Assembly: GCA_964497535.1 (NCBI GenBank) | Contig: CAZCCG010000001.1 | Location: 130,688 to 194,687 of the forward strand | DNA: 64,000 bases | Origin: an uncultured Gammaproteobacteria bacterium | Lineage (GTDB): Bacteria; Patescibacteriota; Microgenomatia; Levybacterales; UBA12049 | Direction of reading: 5' to 3' | Shown: piece by piece, positions 16,433-27,957 of the stretch | How the letters are laid out: the number at the start of each line of letters is the position of its first letter | Position numbering within the stretch: the first letter of the stretch is position 1 | Program-made: the position numbers and the translations under genes | Notes under the pieces: generated by a model | What the model was told of the DNA's origin: nothing | Database searches by the model: none | The model's input: only the letters and a program-made list of their open reading frames with translations

Positions 16433-17263
16433 TCATATAGTTCTGATTGTTTGGAGTACTTCACCAATCGCGTCATGATACGAGCTATTGGCAACAAATC
16501 CACCATGATCCTGTACAAATTGTTTGTATTCGTCACTCGCGTTGCCAACTGCCGCAACCAGTCCTCCTCTTTCAAGAAGCTGGGATGCGGCATCGATATC
16601 TCGATTATGATCGGCAATAAAAACAGTGGGGGTTGTATGAGGATCGATGGTATGAAGAGAGAGAAGTGTTTGGATGCCTTCTCTTTTGGAAAGTCCCCGG
16701 GGATCTATGTCAATTGCTTTTCCTACATCGATTCTGAAACGATCAGTACAGGCAAGCTCCTCAAGCACCGGTGCCACTTGATGCATTGCGTACTCATGGA
16801 TGTCACACTCTTTTGGGGGTACAATAACAGTTTTTATATATCCCATTCCGGGAAGAAATTGAGCTTCATCTGGTGAAAAAGGAATTGAGGCAACAGCCCC
16901 CTGTTCTTGGAGAGCCTGCCGCAGACGAGGAACATCATGGGATGCATATGTTTTCCATTGTGGGAGAACCGCTTGGGTATTATGTCCTACATCATAGAGT
17001 GATCCTCCACCTTCAGTAATCCATAAACCGTTCTTTTCTCCCAAATAATAAGCAACCGGTTGCATCTCCGAAGGTGGTCTATTGGTAAGTACAGAAACGG
17101 CGCCGCCATTTCGCCGAAAATCCTGCAAGTGCTTGGCCATTTGGACATACGCATCAGGATTAAGGGTATGAAATTGCGGCCATCGTAACACAACTCCATC
17201 AAGATCCAGAATAAGGAATTGTCGTGGTTTTGCTTCTATTTCTGCTGAAGGTCGTTCATGCAT
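16433..17263 (-). CDS. HAD-superfamily (IIB-like) phosphatase
   Basis: Motif I LILDLDGVV near the N-terminus, 276 aa. In an operon with the hexokinase-family gene. Confidence 0.5.
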   Translation of the reverse strand: MHERPSAEIEAKPRQFLILDLDGVVLRWPQFHTLNPDAYVQMAKHLQDFRRNGGAVSVLTNRPPSEMQPVAYYLGEKNGLWITEGGGSLYDVGHNTQAVLPQWKTYASHDVPRLRQALQEQGAVASIPFSPDEAQFLPGMGYIKTVIVPPKECDIHEYAMHQVAPVLEELACTDRFRIDVGKAIDIDPRGLSKREGIQTLLSLHTIDPHTTPTVFIADHNRDIDAASQLLERGGLVAAVGNASDEYKQFVQDHGGFVANSSYHDAIGEVLQTIRTI

Positions 17264-18167
17264 ATAATGCGTATTGTTGGTCTTGAGTAAGAAGACGGGC
17301 GGCAGTGGTTATATCGTCCTGGTCAGGAAGAATACCACCGATCCCAATATGTGTCAAATGGTATATTTCATGAAAATCCTCATGAGAGAGTGATCCTTTG
17401 TGTTTTTCTTCTGCAGCGATGATCCGTAATAAGTCTACATCCTGGGGATTAGGAGCGGATAATAATCGTTCCCGTTGGTCGCCGGTAATATCAATGAGTC
17501 GAAAAGCCTCCATTCCCAAATGAATGCCAATTGCAAACTTAATCCGATCAAACAATATATCTCTTCCTTCAATAGCCCGCAGAAGTTGTGGATAGATAAC
17601 GCGGGCTTGCATCGGAGTGAAGTATCTCTGATCAATAAAATCACGTGACTGCTCCGGGGGAGTAGGCCATTCGCTAATGACGCTTCCGTCTTCTAATTTC
17701 TGGCGGGGAGGCATGGTATCAACATACCACATGGTGCCTGTAGCGTCTTTGCAAAAGTTAGCAGGCGGAGGATCCAGTGAGATAGGAAATCCGGCATCCC
17801 ACACGGTTCTGAAAAGATCCAGGTACTGACTGATATCAGTCAGTACTTCTTCGTTGGTTGTGTTGGGGTCACCAAATGACACCCGCAGATCCGCTCCTGC
17901 CGGAGATACTACTTCAACCAGATTTACCTTTCCGGGATGCCCATTTTTTTCTATGTAATGTCCTTTTGTTTGAGAAACAGGTACTCCTATCTCTGCGGCA
18001 ATTGCCGCAAAGCTTCTCATATGCATCGCAATATCCATTGCATGAGACTGCTCAAATCCATGAGCTTTTTGTCCATATTGCTTCATCAAAAGTTCTGTTC
18101 CTTGGGAGGACATGACAGAAGAGATAACCGAGTGAAATCCTGATACTGTCCTTTGCTCAATTGCCAT
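17256..18167 (-). CDS. hypothetical protein (first gene of the hypothetical/HAD/hexokinase operon)
   Basis: The long ORF extends to 18386 but overlaps the divergent regulator gene. The internal ATG at 18167 (MAIEQRTVSG...) leaves a sensible divergent promoter region. No domain recognized. Confidence 0.4.
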   Translation of the reverse strand: MAIEQRTVSGFHSVISSVMSSQGTELLMKQYGQKAHGFEQSHAMDIAMHMRSFAAIAAEIGVPVSQTKGHYIEKNGHPGKVNLVEVVSPAGADLRVSFGDPNTTNEEVLTDISQYLDLFRTVWDAGFPISLDPPPANFCKDATGTMWYVDTMPPRQKLEDGSVISEWPTPPEQSRDFIDQRYFTPMQARVIYPQLLRAIEGRDILFDRIKFAIGIHLGMEAFRLIDITGDQRERLLSAPNPQDVDLLRIIAAEEKHKGSLSHEDFHEIYHLTHIGIGGILPDQDDITTAARLLTQDQQYALYA

Positions 18168-18281
18168 AACAACTATTCTAAAAGACTTCGTATTGTTGTG
18201 CTTGACGCTTAGGAAACACGGTTCTGACAAAGGGCTGACAACAACCGCATATTGATAACGGGTGGGCAAAACCAGTACAAT

Positions 18282-19616
18282 ATGATGCACCATACTATGG
18301 AAACAGTTAATCTTGAAGCGGAATACCCAATAACATTCCACGAAAAAGAAGCCAGAGAGCTGGGACAGCATCTCAAAAGTCACCACTCAGTAGTTCTGAT
18401 TGGGATGAAGCGCGTAGGAATCAGTAACTTTCTGCGGTTTTTCCTCTATCATAAAGATATTGCCACAACCTACATCGGAGATGGTAAAAAACATCTTTTT
18501 ATTCATGTTGATCTTAATAATCTCGTAGAACGGGAGATACCGGCCTTCTGGACATTGACACTCAAACGGATTGTAGATTCGATTGAAAACACGGATATCC
18601 CGGGTAATATCAAAGATGACATTGAGTCGCTCTTTATGGATAGTATCCAGTCCCAGGATCTGTTTATCACTATTGATAGTGTACGTAAAAGCCTGATGAT
18701 GCTCGTTGAACAAAATATCGAGCCTACCCTCTTTTTTGTTCTTTTTGACCGTATGCAAGATGCTATTACGGTAGAGTTCTTCGCAAATTTACAAGGAATA
18801 CAAGATGCGGTTCATGATCGATTGTCGTATGTATTCACCAGTTTTCGAAGCCTGGATGTTGTTTCTCCGCAAGTATTTACTCGTCCTTCCTTGGTTGTAT
18901 TTTCGCATGATTCATATATCCGACCTGCCAAAAGGGCAGATGTTGAAATTGTTTTTGAAACGCTGCGGCAACAGTATGATTTGGCTGTTTCAGATGAATT
19001 GAGAGAATGGATTTTTGAGCTAGTGGATGGATACATGCGATATTTACATCTGGCGCTAATCCATCTGAATGAGAAAAAGCCGACAGATTTCAAGACAAAA
19101 GAAGAGTTATTCAAGAGCCTTTTGGAAGATGAACGGATTTATTTCCAGTCGGAAGAGCTGTGGGAGAGTTTGAGCCCACAAGAACAAGAAGTGCTGGTAC
19201 AGATTGAGAAAAAGCAGAAAGTTTCAGAAGAGAAAAAAAAGCAGGCAAAATATGTATGGGATACAGGATTTATCTTTGATGGGAAAGGAAAGTGGAATAT
19301 CTTTAGCCCTTTATTTGAGCATTATGTGTCAGAAAAGGTATCAGGACAAAAAAGTGAGGGTATAGTAGCAGGAACCGTTGAATTTACCAAGAAAGAGCAT
19401 TTACTCTTTGATTATCTCAAGAAAAATATCAATGACGTATGCGAGCGGGAGAAAATTATCGAAGCAGTCTGGCCGGAAGTTGAGGCATTGGGGGTTTCAG
19501 ATTGGGCAGTTGATCGACTCGTTGCGCGGGTGAGAAACAAGATGAAAGAGCAGCAAAGCAAGTACGAGATACAAACTATCAAAACCCGGGGGTACAAGCT
19601 CGTTTCTACCGAGTAA
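18282..19616 (+). CDS. transcriptional regulator: N-terminal degenerate P-loop NTPase-like domain plus C-terminal OmpR/PhoB-type winged-helix DNA-binding domain
   Basis: The C-terminal EREKIIEAVWPEVEALGVSDWAVDRLVARVRNKMKE...IQTIKTRGYKLVS is a classic trans_reg_C wHTH. The N-terminus has a Walker-A-like VVLIGMKRVGISNF (Lys replaced by Ile) and Walker-B-like hydrophobic-DE/DR stretches. The ORF-track start at 18252 is a TTG; the first ATG is at 18282. Confidence 0.55.
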   Translation: MMHHTMETVNLEAEYPITFHEKEARELGQHLKSHHSVVLIGMKRVGISNFLRFFLYHKDIATTYIGDGKKHLFIHVDLNNLVEREIPAFWTLTLKRIVDSIENTDIPGNIKDDIESLFMDSIQSQDLFITIDSVRKSLMMLVEQNIEPTLFFVLFDRMQDAITVEFFANLQGIQDAVHDRLSYVFTSFRSLDVVSPQVFTRPSLVVFSHDSYIRPAKRADVEIVFETLRQQYDLAVSDELREWIFELVDGYMRYLHLALIHLNEKKPTDFKTKEELFKSLLEDERIYFQSEELWESLSPQEQEVLVQIEKKQKVSEEKKKQAKYVWDTGFIFDGKGKWNIFSPLFEHYVSEKVSGQKSEGIVAGTVEFTKKEHLLFDYLKKNINDVCEREKIIEAVWPEVEALGVSDWAVDRLVARVRNKMKEQQSKYEIQTIKTRGYKLVSTE

Positions 19617-19659
19617 ATCCTCCACTAACTAGTCATTTTAGCCTCAAAACTCTAAAAAT

Positions 19660-19714
19660 TCGTGAATTATTCGGGAATTGCATTCGGAAATAATTCGGGA
19701 AATTCTCGGGAATT
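19660..19714 (+). promoter_or_regulatory. array of five direct repeats T(T)CG(G/T)GAA(A/T)T at 10-14 bp spacing (candidate operator)
   Basis: Copies begin at 19660 (TCGTGAATT), 19671 (TCGGGAATT), 19685 (TCGGAAATA), 19695 (TCGGGAAAT) and 19706 (TCGGGAATT), i.e. helical-turn periodicity, immediately upstream of promoter P1. Confidence 0.5.
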
Positions 19715-19739
19715 GTAGGCATGAACCTATCCTATAGTC

Positions 19740-19768
19740 TTGACTTGTGGCTACGTTTTTGCTATACT
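19740..19768 (+). promoter_or_regulatory. sigma70-type promoter P1 (TTGACT, 17 bp, TATACT)
   Basis: TTGACT at 19740-19745, a 17-nt spacer, TATACT at 19763-19768, embedded in the conserved context CCTATAGTCTTGACT...GCTATACTTT. Confidence 0.55.
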
Positions 19769-19918
19769 TTTCAGTAGTAAATTTCCCCCCATAAGCGCAT
19801 TTTTTGCTTCTGTGGGATAATTTATTTGGACTTTGAAATAATCAGAATCTTATGGATGCCTTTGTGGGTATATGGATACCTACGGAGGTGTTCATAAGTA
19901 ATAGGAGGGGAGAAGTGC

Positions 19919-20155
19919 ATGAGTCAGATGCAGATGGGATATGTCCCTCCGGATGAAGGTTCCTCGAAAGCCGTCTGCGGATCGTGTTGTACAATTCAGA
20001 ACACGTACTCCGACTACTGCGGAGTAAGCTGGATTAAACAGCATCGTTTGCAAGATGGTTCCTTCTGTCCCGGAGGCAGTAAGTTTCCTAATCTCAACGT
20101 AAGTCTTGTGGGTTTGCTCGTTTCCAAGAGGCTGGAAGGAGAGAGTCATGAGTAG
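19919..20155 (+). CDS. small Cys-rich protein (78 aa), first gene of GC-rich cassette 1
   Basis: Strong RBS AGGAGG 8 nt upstream of the ATG. Sequence MSQMQMGYVPPDEGSSKAVCGSCCTIQNTYSDYCGVSWIKQHRLQDGSFCPGG... has 5 Cys. Its stop overlaps the next ATG (ATGAGTAG), suggesting translational coupling. Confidence 0.4.
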   Translation: MSQMQMGYVPPDEGSSKAVCGSCCTIQNTYSDYCGVSWIKQHRLQDGSFCPGGSKFPNLNVSLVGLLVSKRLEGESHE

Positions 20156-20534
20156 GATACAGCCTGAGATGTCGCAACAGGAGATCGCAGAATTCTGCCG
20201 GGAATGGCAGGCTCACCTTGCTCTCCTGGAGGGCAAGGTCAACCCGGAGTATCTGCTCATCGCGCGTTGCGCGGTAACGCCGGAGAATTTCGGCCGCGAG
20301 CAGGGGCAGCTGAGCCCCATTCGGGAGAATTCTCCCTTCGATCTGTATTTTCTCCTCGTTCCGGCACCGGGGGTGCCGGATGCCTTGCTCATCTGCAGAT
20401 TGCAGGCCGAGCAGGTGCAGGAGGCTCTTGACCAGGAGGATCCTAGCCGCGTGGAGATCGATATCTCCACGGTCGAAGGACGCCTCTTCAAACTCCAGCT
20501 CGAGTTGCTGGAGTTGGGCTATCCGCCCAGGTAG
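20148..20534 (+). CDS. hypothetical acidic protein (129 aa) in very GC-rich DNA, second gene of cassette 1
   Basis: RBS AAGGAGAG 5 nt upstream of the ATG at 20148. MSRIQPEMSQQEIAEFCREWQAHLALLEGKVNPEYLLIARCAVTPENFGREQ... Codon usage (CTG/GCC/GGC/CGC) is unlike the neighbours. The GC-richness also produces long stop-free ORFs in other frames. Confidence 0.45.
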   Translation: MSRIQPEMSQQEIAEFCREWQAHLALLEGKVNPEYLLIARCAVTPENFGREQGQLSPIRENSPFDLYFLLVPAPGVPDALLICRLQAEQVQEALDQEDPSRVEIDISTVEGRLFKLQLELLELGYPPR

Positions 20535-20542
20535 TTTCTCAC

Positions 20543-20576
20543 GCCGCCTTTCCCATCTGGGGGAGGCGGCTTTTTA
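20543..20576 (+). terminator. rho-independent terminator of cassette 1
   Basis: GCCGCCTTTCCC-ATCT-GGGGGAGGCGGC stem-loop followed by TTTTTA. Confidence 0.55.
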
Positions 20577-20590
20577 TGGGAATGAGTCTT

Positions 20591-20621
20591 TCGGGAATAA
20601 ATCGGGAAATCCTCGGGAATT
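20591..20621 (+). promoter_or_regulatory. second array of three TCGGGAA(A/T)T direct repeats at 11-bp spacing (plus a degenerate fourth upstream)
   Basis: Copies begin at 20591, 20602 and 20613. Same motif and spacing as the 19660-19714 array, upstream of promoter P2. Confidence 0.5.
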
Positions 20622-20650
20622 ATATCGTCACAGCACTTTACCCTATAGTA

Positions 20651-20679
20651 TTGCACTTGAGGATAAGATCTGCTATACT
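20651..20679 (+). promoter_or_regulatory. sigma70-type promoter P2 (TTGCAC, 17 bp, TATACT)
   Basis: CCTATAGTATTGCAC...17 nt...GCTATACTTTC, paralogous to P1. Confidence 0.5.
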
Positions 20680-20720
20680 TTCTACGCTAGCCACATTCGC
20701 ATCAATGAAAGGACATATCT

Positions 20721-20891
20721 ATGTCTACATGTGGTACCCCGGCAGACCTGGGATATTATTCCGCCTTGATTAAGGACAAGCAGGAAAAATTGGCGATAAC
20801 AGCTTATCCGCAGGTCAAGCAATGTCTTGACTCTCAATGCCCGAGGTGTACGTGGCTCTTTACCCAGTTGCAGCAGCCAATTAGCTCGTAG
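20721..20891 (+). CDS. small Cys-containing peptide (56 aa), cassette 2
   Basis: MSTCGTPADLGYYSALIKDKQEKLAITAYPQVKQCLDSQCPRCTWLFTQLQQPISS with an AAAGGA RBS about 8 nt upstream. Not in the ORF track because it is under 60 aa. GC-elevated and followed by a hairpin. Confidence 0.3.
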   Translation: MSTCGTPADLGYYSALIKDKQEKLAITAYPQVKQCLDSQCPRCTWLFTQLQQPISS

Positions 20892-20896
20892 CATCC

Positions 20897-20940
20897 TAGC
20901 CGCTTATCCCTTTGGGATAGGCGGCTCATTTACTTTTATA
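20897..20940 (+). terminator. putative terminator hairpin of cassette 2
   Basis: TAGCCGCTTATCCC-TTTG-GGATAGGCGGCT stem-loop (similar in sequence to the cassette 1 terminator) followed by the T-rich stretch TTTACTTTTA. Confidence 0.4.
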
Positions 20941-20983
20941 GCCATCTCTTTATAGCAGCCTCACTTCATGTTACAATGACGCC

Positions 20984-23221
20984 ATGGAAAAAAGTTATAA
21001 TCCCAAAGAAGCAGAAGAAAAAATTTATAAGTTTTGGGAAGAAAAAGGCTACTTCAAATCCAATATTAATAAAAGTAAAAAGCCGTTTACTATTCTCCTT
21101 CCTCCTCCTAATGCAAGCGGTCGCATGCATACAGGGAACGTACTCATGATTGCTATTGAAGATTTGCTAATTCGATGGCATCGGATGAAGGGTGATCCTA
21201 CATTATGGATACCAGGCACTGATCATGCAGGGACTGAAACACAAATTACTTTTGAGCGAGAACTCAAGAAGCAAGGGAAATCACGATTCAATTTCAACCG
21301 GGAAGATTTATATAAGCAGATTTGGAATTTTGTACAAAACAATAGACATGTAATTGAAGACCAAATTAAAGAAATGGGAGCTTCAGTTGATTGGTCTCGT
21401 TATACTTTCACATTGGATGACAAAGTTATCAAGACAGTATATGCGACATTTAAGAAAATGACTGATGATGGGTTGGTATATCGTGGGGAGTACATGGTTA
21501 ATTATTGCCCGAAATGTGGCACAACGTATTCAGATGTTGAAATCTCACATATTGAACGAAAAGACCCGCTGTATTATATGAAATATGGACCGTTTGTCTT
21601 GGCAACCGTTCGACCGGAGACTAAATTTGGAGATACAGCAGTTGCAGTAAATCCGAAAGACAAGAGATACAAAGAATGGATTGGAAAAGAAATCGAAGTT
21701 GAGGGGTTAATTGGCAAAGTGACACTGAAAGTTATTGGGGATGATTATGTTGATCAGAAGTTTGGAACAGGAGTAGTAAAGGTGACTCCGGCTCATGACA
21801 AAAATGATTACGATGCCGGATTGCGACACCATCTTGAGATCCGTCCGGTGATTGATTTAAATGGAAAGCTCAATGAGCGAGCAGGAAAATATGCAGGGCT
21901 GAGTGTATTTGAAGCTCGCAAAAAGGTTGTTGAAGACCTGGAAGAAAAGGGACTTATCGAGAAAATGGATGAAAATTATCTCCATACGATTTCTGTATGC
22001 AAAGCAGGGCATGAAATCGAACCCATGGTTTTACCCAATTGGTTTATTCGAGTTGATGACAAAAAAAAGTCATTAAAGAAACCGGCATATGATGCCGTAA
22101 AGAGCGGACAAGTAAAGATTCTTCCTAAATGGCAGGAGAAACGGTACTTTTCATGGATTGAGGAAATGCGAGATTGGCCGATTTCTCGACAGAATACATG
22201 GGGGATTAGGATCCCTGTTTGGTATTCTTTAGAAAAAAACCCAACACTTCAAGTATCATATTTGAAAAATGATGGTCAGAGGGTCATTCGCAGTGGTGAA
22301 GGAATACTAGAAAAAAATGAATTTGAAGAAGCACAAAAAGGTCTTCAAAAAATCATCGCTCCAATCCAATGTACATCTGAGCTTGAGCCGTCATCTCCAA
22401 AAGAACATTATTTACAAGAAACAGACACTTTTGATACGTGGTTTTCCTCAGGTCAATGGCCCCTGGTGACTCTTGGTTATCCTGACTCTGAAGATTTCAA
22501 ATATTTTTATCCCACTTCGGTTATGGAGACTGGATGGGAAATTATGAGACTGTGGGTTTCTCGCATGATTATGTTCGGGATGTATATGACCGGTAAGCCG
22601 CCATTTGAATATGTATACCTTCATGGTCGTGTTATGGCTCCCGATGGTAGAAAGATGAGTAAGTCATTGGGAAATGTGATTAACCCCGAAGAATACCTCG
22701 ATCAATATGGGGCTGATGCTCTCCGGATGGGGCTTATTTCCGGAACCGCGACAGGACAGGATTTTTCCTTTCCGAAAGACAAAATTTTGGGCTACAAGCA
22801 TTTTGCCAATAAGATTTGGAATATGGCCCGGTTTATGCTCATGATGATAGACGAGTACGGTAAAGAGTTGTCCTTGGTTGAAGATCTTGCCAAAGACCAA
22901 CTTACCACAGAAGATAGGGTAATCCTTTCAGACCTGAATAAGCTGATCAAAGTGGTTGACGCATCTTTGGAGAAGTTCCGCTTTACCGATGCAGCAGAAG
23001 GTATTTATCAATTTATGTGGCATACTCTGGCAGATAAATATATAGAGGAAGTTAAAAAACGGGAAGATAAAGAAGTTGCTCTTTCAGTGTTAAGGCATGT
23101 ATATATGACAAGTTTGACGCTCCTTCATCCTTTTATGCCCTTTGTAACAGAAGCAATTTATCAGCAGATACCAGGGAGAAAAAGTGAATCGATTATGATA
23201 CAAAAATGGCCCTCGGAATAA
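20984..23221 (+). CDS. valS: valine--tRNA ligase (short form, no C-terminal coiled coil)
   Basis: PPPNASGRMHTGNV...LWIPGTDHAGTETQ, the editing-domain motifs (RPETKFGDTAVAVNP, GTGVVKVTPAHDKNDY) and KMSKSLGNVINP. Note that the HIGH signature reads HTGN. Confidence 0.85.
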   Translation: MEKSYNPKEAEEKIYKFWEEKGYFKSNINKSKKPFTILLPPPNASGRMHTGNVLMIAIEDLLIRWHRMKGDPTLWIPGTDHAGTETQITFERELKKQGKSRFNFNREDLYKQIWNFVQNNRHVIEDQIKEMGASVDWSRYTFTLDDKVIKTVYATFKKMTDDGLVYRGEYMVNYCPKCGTTYSDVEISHIERKDPLYYMKYGPFVLATVRPETKFGDTAVAVNPKDKRYKEWIGKEIEVEGLIGKVTLKVIGDDYVDQKFGTGVVKVTPAHDKNDYDAGLRHHLEIRPVIDLNGKLNERAGKYAGLSVFEARKKVVEDLEEKGLIEKMDENYLHTISVCKAGHEIEPMVLPNWFIRVDDKKKSLKKPAYDAVKSGQVKILPKWQEKRYFSWIEEMRDWPISRQNTWGIRIPVWYSLEKNPTLQVSYLKNDGQRVIRSGEGILEKNEFEEAQKGLQKIIAPIQCTSELEPSSPKEHYLQETDTFDTWFSSGQWPLVTLGYPDSEDFKYFYPTSVMETGWEIMRLWVSRMIMFGMYMTGKPPFEYVYLHGRVMAPDGRKMSKSLGNVINPEEYLDQYGADALRMGLISGTATGQDFSFPKDKILGYKHFANKIWNMARFMLMMIDEYGKELSLVEDLAKDQLTTEDRVILSDLNKLIKVVDASLEKFRFTDAAEGIYQFMWHTLADKYIEEVKKREDKEVALSVLRHVYMTSLTLLHPFMPFVTEAIYQQIPGRKSESIMIQKWPSE

Positions 23222-23234
23222 TATAAAATGAAAA

Positions 23235-23645
23235 ATGCATATGAAACAGATTGCTGCAGTTATTCTGGAGAATAAAAACAAAGAATTGTTGTTCTATCTA
23301 AGGGATAACAATCAACAAATTCCATTTCCTCATCATTGGGATTTGTTTGGTGGACATGTAGAAGAAGGAGAAACACCGGAAGTTGCGCTCAAACGGGAAG
23401 TCCAGGAAGAGTTGGGGATAGAGTTATTGGATCTTAAGTTCTTCAAAAAATATACGGTTTTGACAGGAGATGTCCATCAAAATATAAAATATATCTATAC
23501 TGCGCCAATTGATATCCCGGCTTCACTGTTAAAACTTCAAGAAGGAGAACGGCTTCAATATTTCTCACGAGAAGAAATTCCTCAGCTTAAATTTGCCAAT
23601 GTTTTGAGAGATATTGTGTTGGATTATCTTGAACGTACAAAATAA
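23235..23645 (+). CDS. NUDIX hydrolase
   Basis: Nudix box GGHVEEGETPEVALKREVQEELGIE. Confidence 0.75.
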   Translation: MHMKQIAAVILENKNKELLFYLRDNNQQIPFPHHWDLFGGHVEEGETPEVALKREVQEELGIELLDLKFFKKYTVLTGDVHQNIKYIYTAPIDIPASLLKLQEGERLQYFSREEIPQLKFANVLRDIVLDYLERTK

Positions 23646-23750
23646 TGTATAATTTGCCATCGCGAGTAAAGCGCGGCGATCTCAAACATTCATGACCTGC
23701 CTGTAGGGATTACTTCGTCACTTCGTTTCTCGCAATGACAGTAAGTAGAT

Positions 23751-24386
23751 ATGAAAAAGATGAGCTGGAAGCCGCCATTTTATAAACACAAGAAGAAGGT
23801 TTTTGAAAAAGTTCTCAGTGTGAGTAGCTTTATACATCAAATTGGTGAATCTGATAACCTGCGGAAACCTTCTGCTCAAGTTCCTCTGGCAACAATTACA
23901 AGTCAAGCATTTCAAAAGAAAGTTCAGTACTTAAAGTCATGTATGAGAAAGTATCGTAAGCTGACCGGGGCTGGAAGAGGAATAACAGCTGTTCAAATTG
24001 GCATACCTGAGTGTTTTTCCGTCATATACATGCCTCAATTGAAAGGTAACCTTCTTATTGTTATCAATCCGAAGATTACCAAAAAATCAAAAGAACTATT
24101 GAAGTATCCGGAAGTATGTATGAGCGCAAATCCGATTATTGCTTCAGTTACTCGTCCTGCATGGATAGAATTTGAATATTATGATGAAGCAGGAAAGAAG
24201 CAGCATTGGAATATCAAAGCAGATACAAAAGAAGGTACTTTGTACAATCGGGTTTTCCAGCATGAAATCGACCATATGCATGGTATTATTAATATAGATC
24301 TGGTTAATTCCAATACTCTTATTTTCGAATCAGATCCCACATTTTATGTCAAAGCGGCGTTCGAAAAAGTTAAAAGCACAAATTAG
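23751..24386 (+). CDS. def: peptide deformylase
   Basis: Motif 1 GAGRGITAVQIG, motif 2 EVCMSAN and motif 3 QHEIDHMHG (the HExxH metal site). Confidence 0.7.
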   Translation: MKKMSWKPPFYKHKKKVFEKVLSVSSFIHQIGESDNLRKPSAQVPLATITSQAFQKKVQYLKSCMRKYRKLTGAGRGITAVQIGIPECFSVIYMPQLKGNLLIVINPKITKKSKELLKYPEVCMSANPIIASVTRPAWIEFEYYDEAGKKQHWNIKADTKEGTLYNRVFQHEIDHMHGIINIDLVNSNTLIFESDPTFYVKAAFEKVKSTN

Positions 24387-24798
24387 AGCCCAAAAGGCTG
24401 CCAAAATAACTGCCGAAGTAGTCAAAGTTGAACCTCAAAAACGACCGCGAAAGAAATTTCTTCAAAAACTCTTCATGGACTGGTTTTTTATTGCCAGTCT
24501 TCTGATGCTTCTTCTTATTTTTGCGATAGGAATTATTGGGGTAGATGTGAAGCGAAATACACAGCGGCTGGAAGAAAAAATGACTGCCCAACATGGTGTG
24601 GAACAACAAAAAAAGAAATGGGAGGGAATTGTGAGCAAGTATCCCAATTATCGGGATGGATATTTCAAAGCAGCACAGTATGAATATCAACTGGGAGATA
24701 AGAAAAAAGCGTTGGCAAATGTACAACAGGCGCTTTTTATAGATCCAAATTTCGAAATCGGGAGAAAATTTGAGGCTTTTCTAAAATCCAAACAATAA
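24346..24798 (+). CDS. hypothetical single-TM protein with a TPR-like C-terminus
   Basis: Basic N-terminus, TM helix FFIASLLMLLLIFAIGIIGV, and a C-terminal helical repeat. Overlaps the def end by 41 nt; the real start may be the internal Met at about 24475 (MDWFF...). Confidence 0.3.
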   Translation: MSKRRSKKLKAQIRAQKAAKITAEVVKVEPQKRPRKKFLQKLFMDWFFIASLLMLLLIFAIGIIGVDVKRNTQRLEEKMTAQHGVEQQKKKWEGIVSKYPNYRDGYFKAAQYEYQLGDKKKALANVQQALFIDPNFEIGRKFEAFLKSKQ

Positions 24799-26922: not shown

Positions 26923-27957
26923 ATGGTAGATATAAAAACAAAACAAGAAGAACAAACTCCACCCGAGGAAATAGTAATGCTCAACTCTCTTCGTGCCCGA
27001 GCGTGGCCTGAGTTTGTGGGACAGGAGCCAATCAAAGAGTCCCTCAAAATTGCCATTGAAGCGGCCAAAAATAGAGGTGAGGCAGTAGAGCATATGCTCT
27101 TTTATGGACCACCGGGGCTTGGAAAGACAACTTTGTCTCATTTGGTTGCAAAAGAACGGGGAGTGAATATCCGGGTTACGTCAGGTCCGGCTATTGAACG
27201 TACCGGGGATCTCGCTTCAATTCTCACCAATCTGGAAAAGGGAGATATACTATTTATAGATGAAATCCATCGGCTCAATAAAGCAGTAGAAGAGACTATG
27301 TATCCGGCTATGGAAGATTTTGCTCTGGATATTGTCCTGGGGAAAGGGCCTTCTGCCCGGACGATGCGGTTGGATTTGCCGCAGTTTACTATTATTGGTG
27401 CAACGACTCGAGTCGGGTTACTATCGGCACCGCTTCGGGACCGATTTGGAGTAGTACATCGTCTCAACTTCTATAATCCGCAGGAACTGGCCATTGTAAT
27501 TAGGAAAGCAGCAGACAAACTCAATGTCAAAATTGATGAGGGTAGTGTTGAGGAACTAGCCAAACGGGGACGGGGAACTCCCCGTATTGCGTTGAAGTTT
27601 CTCAAACGTGCACGCGACTACGCAGCAGTCAGAGGAAAAGGAGAAATTACAAAGGATCTGACTCATCAGGCATTGGCTCTGATTGAAGTCGACCAGATGG
27701 GGTTGGATTCCCTGGATCGCAAAGTTCTGGAATCAATTATTCACAAACATAGTGGTGGACCGGTTGGGATTGAGACTATTGCGGCAAGTATATCTGAAGA
27801 TATTGGAACACTTGAGGATATGGTCGAGCCGTATCTGATGCAAATCGGGTTTCTCAAAAGGACTCCTCGGGGACGAGTTGCCACCAAAGCTGCATATCTT
27901 CATTTAGGGTTAACCCCTCCTAAGGAGGACAATACCAATCAACAAAAACTCCTCTAA
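26923..27957 (+). CDS. ruvB: Holliday junction DNA helicase RuvB
   Basis: [15 protein letters not shown]...[11 protein letters not shown] (Walker A/B) and the RuvB C-terminal winged helix. Confidence 0.9.

Follow-up and report, generated by a model that had tools for sequence, protein, structure and literature searches.

Phased TCGGGAA arrays beside a STAND-type winged-helix regulator gene and valS in Levybacteria: a candidate operator and the gene cassettes behind it

Within 64 kb of DNA from a Levybacterium of the candidate phyla radiation (CPR), in the following called the window, a stretch of 1.37 kb lies between the gene of a putative transcriptional regulator and valS. It carries two arrays of short direct repeats of the type TCGGGAA, and each array is followed by a promoter, small open reading frames (ORFs) and a hairpin. 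The locus raises the question of what these arrays serve and whether the small genes behind them are their proper targets. An initial annotation had described the stretch as two paralogous cassettes that look like a self-contained module controlled by the adjacent winged helix-turn-helix (wHTH) protein. The two phased arrays, the promoters, the small ORFs and the hairpins are all present where it had placed them. Comparison with related genomes argues for a wider setting: with somewhat better than even probability, the arrays are the operator of the adjacent regulator, which canonically lies at valS and was duplicated here to drive acquired cargo.

Arrays and regulator at the valS locus

The elements on which this reading depends are the following.

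18297-19616, + strand: regulator gene, with an N-terminal STAND/'archaeal ATPase'-type NTPase fold and a C-terminal OmpR/PhoB-type winged helix (residues ~365-440)
19660-19712, + strand: array 1, five TCGGGAA-type boxes (TCGTGAA at 19660, TCGGGAA at 19671, TCGGAAA at 19684, TCGGGAA at 19695 and TCGGGAA at 19706)
20591-20619, + strand: array 2, three perfect TCGGGAA boxes at 20591, 20602 and 20613 (steps of 11 and 11 bp, 21/21 matches)
20969-20986, + strand: valS promoter and start, with the extended -10 element TGTTACAAT at 20969-20977, which ends 6 nt before the ATG at 20984

The boxes of array 1 follow each other in steps of 11, 13, 11 and 11 bp, and the last three of them form the canonical triple box. 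The window contains 20 copies of TCGGGAA, compared to 8.4 ± 2.7 in shuffled sequences, and six of the 20 are located inside the two arrays. The window was scanned for three units with 11-bp phasing at a threshold of 16/21 matches, at which shuffled sequences gave 0-1 hits. Only arrays 1 and 2 were recovered, together with a weak match (16/21) at 27413.

For comparison, 80 loci from GTDB species genomes were fetched via the alignment of the regulator and scanned for three boxes with at least 18/21 matches. The regulator gene was followed by valS in 51 of the 80 loci, mostly with a gap of ~50-130 bp, and the orientation of valS was the same in all 51. The gap usually contained two or three TCGGGAA boxes, spaced by 11 or 22 bp and in either orientation. 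Altogether, 77 arrays were found in 1.0 Mb of the relatives' loci and none in shuffled sequence. All but a few were located either in the regulator-valS gap (proximal array, 30 of the 51 syntenic loci) or just after valS (distal array, 39 of the 43 loci covering this position). The distal array was nearly always inverted, while the proximal one was flipped in ~10 loci without any change in synteny. Beside the regulator genes of the 29 loci without valS synteny, no array was observed; there was one weak match inside the regulator gene of L056. The consensus of 76 arrays is TCGG(G/T)AAT-aan-TCGG(g/t)AAAT-nc-TCGGGAAT, and it is the same for proximal and distal arrays.

This conservation beside the regulator gene supports the earlier proposal that the arrays are the operator of the neighbouring wHTH protein. 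The idea of a self-contained module, be it of toxin, RiPP or metal-peptide type, was not supported, as the array sits between the regulator gene and a valS gene predicted to be leaderless in 30 of 51 loci and a second one follows valS.

A metagenome-wide scan with a degenerate triple box yielded 80 loci, ~50 of which were regulator, valS or downstream-gene (p150) loci. The ~30 matches away from valS were considered as further members of a regulon and almost all rejected, since they are perfect 11-mer tandem repeats from unrelated organisms, often on contigs of higher GC content. As far as could be checked, the repeats are not common elsewhere independently of the regulator. The perfect tandem 11-mer TCGGGAATATG with a shared flank (...ctactatcgaatttgaattgtcgggaatg...) was seen in L123, L125 (two copies), L139, L140, L143 and L165; several of the contigs with this repeat come from one metagenome (Ga0099364), and it is an unrelated element that matches the box pattern by chance. 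The match in L142 looks Levybacteria-like but is near a contig end, and could not be placed. Additional triple-box arrays were noticed inside the valS coding sequence of L080 (~8656), L107 (2907-2935) and L147 (4866-4894). Tandem repeats of ~30 nt (…aaccttggcttcgctaagaacctgcttcgcag…) directly follow regulator homologues not linked to valS in L067 (7287-7480) and L076 (7284-7480).

In 36 of 52 loci, the window included, 6-8 nt separate the end of an extended -10 element (TGnTAnAAT) from the valS ATG, and the valS mRNA is therefore predicted to be leaderless. In the canonical geometry, the last box is typically 31-35 nt away from the -10 element and thus just 5' of the would-be -35 position, at which no clear -35 element is present. 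Unlike in most relatives, valS of the window has no array directly upstream.

The distal array falls within the 5' part of the next coding sequence after valS and is read in frame (e.g. L005:9731-9759 and L024:9580-9608). This gene encodes a protein of ~140 aa whose N-terminus is rich in lysine and which also has a hydrophobic segment, probably spanning the membrane, and a TPR repeat. The array is translated as (F/S)PxIxRxI(T/P)(E/D). Its Pro is encoded by CCG in 36 of 37 loci, in comparison to 22% CCG among the Pro codons of valS in the same loci. Given this codon bias, the distal array is conserved at the DNA level, as a candidate operator embedded in a coding sequence. The homologue of the gene in the window is located at 24346-24798. 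Both the window and its closest relative, L084, lack the distal array; in both, valS and this gene are separated by inserted genes, among them NUDIX and def. Pairing of the proximal (+) with the distal (-) array in a read-through transcript was considered as well. It is unlikely because the two have the same orientation in ~10 loci and the proximal array is located 5' of the valS promoter.

The regulator gene had been given a start at 18282; the ATG at 18297, used by the gene call in the public data, is likelier and results in a protein of 439 aa. Pfam assigned Trans_reg_C (PF00486) to residues 365-440 above the gathering score (E 2.7e-14) and only a weak AAA_35 signal to the N-terminal part. 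The first ~350 aa fold as a STAND/AAA+-like NTPase: the AlphaFold2 model, built with 20 homologues, was confident (predicted local distance difference test score of 86.8) and comprises the P-loop NTPase core, helical domain and winged helix of the STAND/NOD fold. Its Walker A motif is degenerate and reads GMKRVGIS (G41-M-K-R-V-G46-I47-S48), with Ile in place of Lys, and the Walker B position reads F-D156-R157 (numbering from 18282). Both are invariant across 20 diverse homologues, and the canonical combination of GxxxxGK[ST] and hhhhD[DE] was not found in the protein. Nucleotide binding and hydrolysis are uncertain because of these replacements, which suggest a pseudo-ATPase or a non-canonical nucleotide site.

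No receiver domain was detected, as Response_reg of Pfam did not match and the response-regulator models of NCBIfam covered the C-terminal 80 residues far below their cutoffs. BTAD (PF03704) gave no match at E values up to 0.1. More than 1655 homologues of the regulator were found, the best of them 55-63% identical, and the named ones are annotated as Candidatus Levybacteria or Patescibacteria. The recognition region of the wHTH is nearly invariant among the homologues. The regulator is conserved across Candidatus Levybacteria. A divergent ORF of 376 aa (17256-18386, - strand) overlaps the start region of the regulator gene with its listed 5' end. It had no match in Pfam or NCBIfam; relatives of it occur in L023 and L052, and only that of L023 is directly upstream of the regulator gene (38% identity).

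Cassettes in the gap between regulator and valS

The regulator-valS gap is a hot spot of gene insertion. Where it is long, it holds different cargo in different relatives, as follows.

L007: RHH gene plus PemK/MazF (MazEF), E 2e-29
L011, L019 and L030: BrnA/CopG antitoxin, reverse strand
L019: VapBC-like pair
L062: NUDIX
L018: glycosyltransferase-like genes
L022, L035, L036 and L039: unknown ORFs

The cargo of L007, L035 and L022 lies between the operator and valS, i.e. 3' of the array. Direct copies of the array flank cargo in three loci, namely L011 (6486-7152), L084 (11370-11840) and the window (19660-20619), and over 33 nt, the two copies of L084 are the same but for one or two positions. 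Cargo may have entered by recombination at the operator or by its duplication. Neither an integrase nor an att-like site was seen at the slot, and no recombinase or transposase was linked to the locus in those examined.

The cassettes of the window are lineage-specific insertions in this gap. The regulator of L084 is 79% identical to that of the window. The two loci share only four segments of DNA: the 3' end of the regulator gene with array 1, array 2, a terminator of the T2 type and the valS promoter. Array 2 is 97% identical between them, and array 1 is homologous to array 1 of L084. There, array 1 is followed by 34 nt (canonical geometry kept), TGTTATAAT and an ORF of 65 aa.

The two cassettes of the window had been called paralogous. 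This is true for their regulatory parts, as the segments with array and promoter (19683-19770 and 20590-20681) are 77% identical over 93 nt, but not for their coding parts, which are mutually unrelated. Both segments end in a 40-nt block, CCTATAGTnTTG-N18-GCTATACTTT, of which exactly two copies exist in the window (0.01 expected). The blocks contain the promoters P1 and P2.

19731-19770, + strand: P1, with CCTATAGT at 19731-19738, -35 element TTGACT at 19740-19745 and extended -10 element TGCTATACT at 19760-19768
20642-20681, + strand: P2, with CCTATAGT at 20642-20649, -35 element TTGCAC at 20651-20656 and extended -10 element TGCTATACT at 20671-20679

P1 has the form TTGACT-17-TATACT with a TG extension, matches the consensus in 10 of 12 positions and has its predicted transcription start at ~19775. 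The distance from array to -10 element is 50 and 54 nt in the two cassettes. CCTATAGT was examined as an element specific to the cassettes or related to the regulator and rejected, as the same motif precedes the -35 element of rplY promoters and of the promoter in front of another organism's p128 homologue. A promoter of the type CC(T)ATAGT-TTGACA-N17-TGnTAnACT is located upstream of rplY (L25) in six relatives, and in at least L023 and L108, the gene behind it opens with the L25 start MKHPQL. The rplY promoter of the window (CCATAGTTTGACA...TGCTATACT) is on the minus strand at ~25560-25520. The type was observed in L023, L029, L048, L068, L079, L108 and L119 as well as at L085:657-694 and L086:1608-1645, where it heads a gene and the p128 homologue, respectively. 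Thus, CCTATAGT-TTGAC-N17-TGCTATACT appears to be a strong housekeeping promoter type of Levybacteria and not specific to the cassettes. The ATAGT element 5' of -35 may be a lineage-specific promoter element.

The transcribed parts of the cassettes comprise the following features.

19775-19918, + strand: cassette 1 leader, ~143 nt, with a 23-bp hairpin at 19849-19898
19919-20155, + strand: p78, 78 aa with five Cys, Shine-Dalgarno (SD) sequence AGGAGG, pattern PPxEG..CGxCxTxQ..(27 residues)..CPGxG
20148-20534, + strand: p128, 128 aa, acidic (isoelectric point 4.5), its ATG overlapping the p78 stop codon in ATGAGTAG
20543-20576, + strand: T1 terminator from a hairpin scan, hairpin at 20543-20570 with a 12-bp GC-rich stem, followed by TTTTTA
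20721-20891, + strand: p56, putative ORF of 56 aa with C4 and C35-x4-C40-x2-C43 (CxxxxCxxC), SD-like AAGGA 7 nt upstream
20898-20938, + strand: T2 terminator, hairpin at 20898-20926 with a 13-bp stem and a weak T tract (CATTTACTTTT)

The leader of cassette 1 folds with -52.8 kcal/mol in RNAfold (z = -5.2), and none of 200 shuffled sequences was equally stable. Its 5' CCCCCC tract (UUUCCCCCC) pairs with the SD sequence of p78 (GGAGGGG), and so the leader could be a translational control element. It did not match Rfam and is not present in L084. In the whole window, neither the T-box nor any other Rfam family matched at gathering score, and the best matches at E values up to 10 in 19600-21000 were far below the cutoffs. 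The GC-rich block as a structured RNA was rejected, given the fact that there was no useful Rfam match and p128 proved to be protein-coding.

All three small genes have SD-like sequences 6-9 nt before their start codons. For p78, the Smith-Waterman score against the 65-aa ORF of L084 was 50, compared to 22.8 ± 4.2 in shuffles, of which none in 2000 was as high, and the spacing CGxC-27 residues-CPG is identical in both. With this significantly similar positional homologue, p78 can be regarded as a real, fast-evolving gene at a conserved position. The L084 homologue is without a p128 partner. No homologues beyond L084 were present in the searched collection; a profile of p78 and the L084 ORF found only itself in a word-indexed search. 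A Cys2-His-Cys metal (zinc) site in p78 is possible from its residues.

The protein encoded by the second gene of cassette 1 was confirmed as acidic and translationally coupled; it has 128 aa and not 129, as had been claimed. The segment of p128 has 57-61% GC in a genome of ~40% GC. Exhaustive HMMER search among 1.8 billion representatives revealed four clear homologues (44-55% identity, E 1e-19 to 2e-32) and a weak one, whereas the word-indexed search gave p128 alone. The homologues are encoded on short contigs of other organisms, L085 being one such, without arrays and without a p78-like partner. Those in L085 and L086 stand alone behind their own promoter. The L086 homologue has ~52% GC on a contig of 36% GC, and its neighbours, which were read by eye and not scanned, presumably represent a BrnT/BrnA pair. 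The weak homologue in L087 adjoins an integrase. The N-terminal 80 residues of p128 gave a confident structure model, but no fold or family match was found. From composition and contexts, p128 is best described as a rare, mobile, horizontally acquired accessory gene that would have arrived here recently.

No homologue of p56 was found, as tblastn returned only p56 itself, and it matched no family and no PDB entry. It is not similar to p78 or to the ORF of L084. Metal binding by p56 is possible in view of its Cys pattern. The T1 and T2 hairpins are 75% alike, and T2 is 80% identical to the terminator after the small ORF of L084. Read-through from the weak T2 into valS is plausible.

None of the three small products matched Pfam, NCBIfam, PHROG or PADLOC, and p78 did not match PDB sequences either. 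A signal peptide or leader motif was not seen in them by eye. The genes around the locus encode a HAD hydrolase, the 376-aa ORF, the regulator, valS, NUDIX, def and a TPR protein. Of the genes examined (16433-24798), none encodes a tailoring enzyme, a protease or an exporter.

Proposed control of valS and rival explanations

With 7-8 conserved and 3-4 variable bases in each of the three boxes, every helical turn would receive one winged helix, all of them on the same face of the DNA, which is the binding mode of PhoB, OmpR and SARP proteins and the layout of the promoters that depend on them. The regulator would bind the boxes with one wHTH per box, probably as an oligomer. At the canonical promoters, it would activate the leaderless valS, which is favoured, or gate it in another way, and the second operator after valS may add repression, a roadblock or looping. 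Because operators are located upstream of the valS promoter and, inverted, after valS, the protein appears to be dedicated to local control of the valS region.

In the lineage of the window, the operator would have been duplicated, each copy being located 5' of a strong housekeeping-type promoter that transcribes acquired cargo. The duplicated operators would thus bring the small-protein genes under valS-type control. As the arrays are ~two helical turns beyond the canonical geometry, the cassettes are perhaps modulated by the regulator and not dependent on it, and modulation is the favoured mode here. Cassette 1 would deliver p78, a fast-evolving Cys/His protein that perhaps binds zinc, coupled to the GC-rich, acquired p128. 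Cassette 2 would deliver the Cys4 orphan p56, and transcription through its weak terminator may keep valS coupled to array 2.

That the arrays serve the adjacent regulator as its operator is a narrower claim, held somewhat more firmly than the complete scheme with duplication and cargo. Any particular sign of regulation is held with far less confidence than either. More ambitious, and improbable as it stands, is an undescribed unit common to the whole of the Levybacteria, in which a STAND-like pseudo-ATPase fused to an OmpR wHTH would act on triple TCGGGAAT operators that bracket the essential, leaderless valS, one of them dual-coded. The proximal operator would capture acquired cassettes (toxin-antitoxin modules and small Cys proteins such as p78, p128 and p56), which would enter by recombination at this operator or by its duplication, and would express them under the valS signal.

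Several observations weigh against the operator reading. At the threshold used, 20 of the 51 syntenic loci have no proximal array, and distal arrays occur on contigs without an adjacent regulator (L137 and L147). As synteny with valS is common to the regulator and the arrays, co-location alone cannot tell binding from a shared neighbourhood. The cassette promoters have good -35 and -10 elements with the arrays ~20 bp further upstream, and they may neither need nor answer the regulator. The missing Lys of Walker A makes nucleotide-driven switching uncertain. Only 4 nt lie between the array and the valS ATG in L006, with no room for a promoter; this spacing suits a roadblock or repressor more than activation. 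As no homologue of p56 was found, it counts as a putative protein only.

The main rival explanation takes the arrays of the window as relics: P1 and P2 would be constitutive, the cassettes independent of the regulator, and the arrays merely carried along with a duplicated or split valS control region. This was given a low probability. It agrees with the near-consensus -35 elements, 17-nt spacers and extended -10 elements of P1 and P2, with the promoter type they share with rplY, and with the array-to--10 distance of 50-54 nt compared to 31-35 nt in the canonical case. Relics would, however, hardly be expected to be better preserved than many valS-proximal arrays, as is the case for the perfect array 2 (21/21) and for array 1 with its extension to five boxes. 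In addition, the extra distance amounts to ~two helical turns, so the helical face is kept, and the three-heptamer operator of PimR is also positioned 5' of the -35 element and still activates (PMC5930380).

An unlikely alternative is that another factor binds the arrays, or that their role is not in transcription, e.g. as target sites for recombination or insertion that bracket valS, with the regulator being only syntenic. Such sites would explain the hot spot and the duplicated arrays around cargo, and direct copies do flank cargo in L011, L084 and the window. The inverted arrays that bracket valS in most genomes and the distal arrays without an adjacent regulator in L137 and L147 are consistent with this as well. 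On the other hand, no recombinase or transposase was linked in the loci examined. The orientation of valS was the same in 51 of 51 loci, and the proximal array flips in ~10 loci while the synteny remains unchanged. Direct repeats phased with 7+4 bp are furthermore the typical target of an OmpR-type wHTH, one of which is encoded next door.

Doubtful, too, is the view that the cassettes are partly non-coding and that p56, and possibly the leader of cassette 1, act as RNAs (small RNA or cis-regulatory leader) with incidental ORFs. The absence of p56 homologues would fit, as would the GC-rich segments, which keep several frames open, and the stable leader (z = -5.2) that sequesters the SD sequence. 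Against it, no Rfam family was found even at E values up to 10, p128 is clearly coding, p78 has a positional protein homologue and p56 has its SD-like AAGGA 7 nt upstream.

The proposal of a peptide toxin or bacteriocin with an immunity partner, or of a precursor resembling ribosomally synthesised and post-translationally modified peptides, is the least probable of all: the products are small and contain Cys, p78 and p128 are translationally coupled and the slot holds toxin-antitoxin modules in relatives, but database matches, a visible leader motif and nearby tailoring, protease or export genes are all lacking, and the solitary p128 homologues (L085 and L086) are ill-suited to a toxin in need of a partner, as is the p78 homologue of L084 without p128. 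As for a type II toxin-antitoxin system, the genes p78 and p128 are coupled, yet no family matches and the pair is not conserved together.

Relation to described systems

A prior description of this regulator, of the box motif, of the link to valS or of any valS regulator in Levybacteria or CPR was not found in the searchable literature. Among described systems, SARP-type regulators with NOD (AfsR and PimR) are closest, followed by PhoB/OmpR and MalT. The repeats of SARP operators are 11 or 22 bp apart, and AfsR from Streptomyces coelicolor combines a SARP wHTH with NOD and TPR domains (PMC10936776). The main operator of PimR, a SARP-LAL regulator from S. natalensis, consists of exactly three heptamers, separated by 4-nt spacers, and leaves the -35 element free (PMC5930380). 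The regulator described here likewise unites an OmpR-type winged helix and a STAND/NOD NTPase in one protein, and its arrays show the direct heptamer repeats, 4-nt spacers and 11-bp period of a SARP/PhoB-type operator. It differs in its domain order, with the NTPase N-terminal and the wHTH C-terminal, in the replaced Walker A Lys, and in that no BTAD was detected and there is no TPR sensor. The heptamer is TCGGGAA here, the putative target is a housekeeping aminoacyl-tRNA synthetase gene in CPR and not an antibiotic cluster, and the second operator of Levybacteria sits inside a coding sequence.

The pho boxes and the OmpR sites F1-F3 and C1-C3 of E. coli are tandem direct repeats of 7+4 bases with a period of 10-11 bp at promoters with a poor or absent -35 element. 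The Trans_reg_C DNA-binding domain and the phased direct repeats just 5' of the promoter are common to these systems and the present one. Instead of a receiver and a partner kinase, however, the protein has a STAND-type NTPase fold. Its sites are three half-site-like units and not paired boxes, and the regulon is apparently a single locus. MalT, a STAND activator of E. coli, has a LuxR-type HTH, a large sensor arm, an intact P-loop and a multi-operon regulon. These features set it apart from the regulator with its OmpR-type wHTH. The unit of regulator and operator falls outside the described families, since each membership fails, be it for BTAD and domain order, the receiver or the LuxR-type HTH.

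With respect to its cargo, the locus resembles toxin-antitoxin hot spots, as one slot carries MazEF, BrnA-type, VapBC-like or orphan genes and p128 is compositionally foreign and found in accessory contexts. Here, however, a conserved operator is on one side of the slot and an essential gene on the other, and cargo can thus inherit the operator.

CPR bacteria have very few transcription factors and cannot be grown alone, and to our knowledge, almost nothing is known about their transcriptional regulation. A conserved orphan regulator is paired here with an easily synthesised candidate operator (three TCGGGAAT boxes with 11-bp phasing) and a conserved putative target, valS. The pairing opens the system to direct tests in vitro. 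For an aminoacyl-tRNA synthetase gene, a protein regulator of its own would be unusual, and the same applies to an operator within a coding sequence that is conserved as DNA. The cassettes can be considered as ordinary accessory cargo, with three small proteins of modest interest until a function is found. The locus illustrates how small genomes may place acquired genes behind an existing control element, and the unit of regulator, operator and valS would offer a clean, testable entry to gene regulation in CPR.

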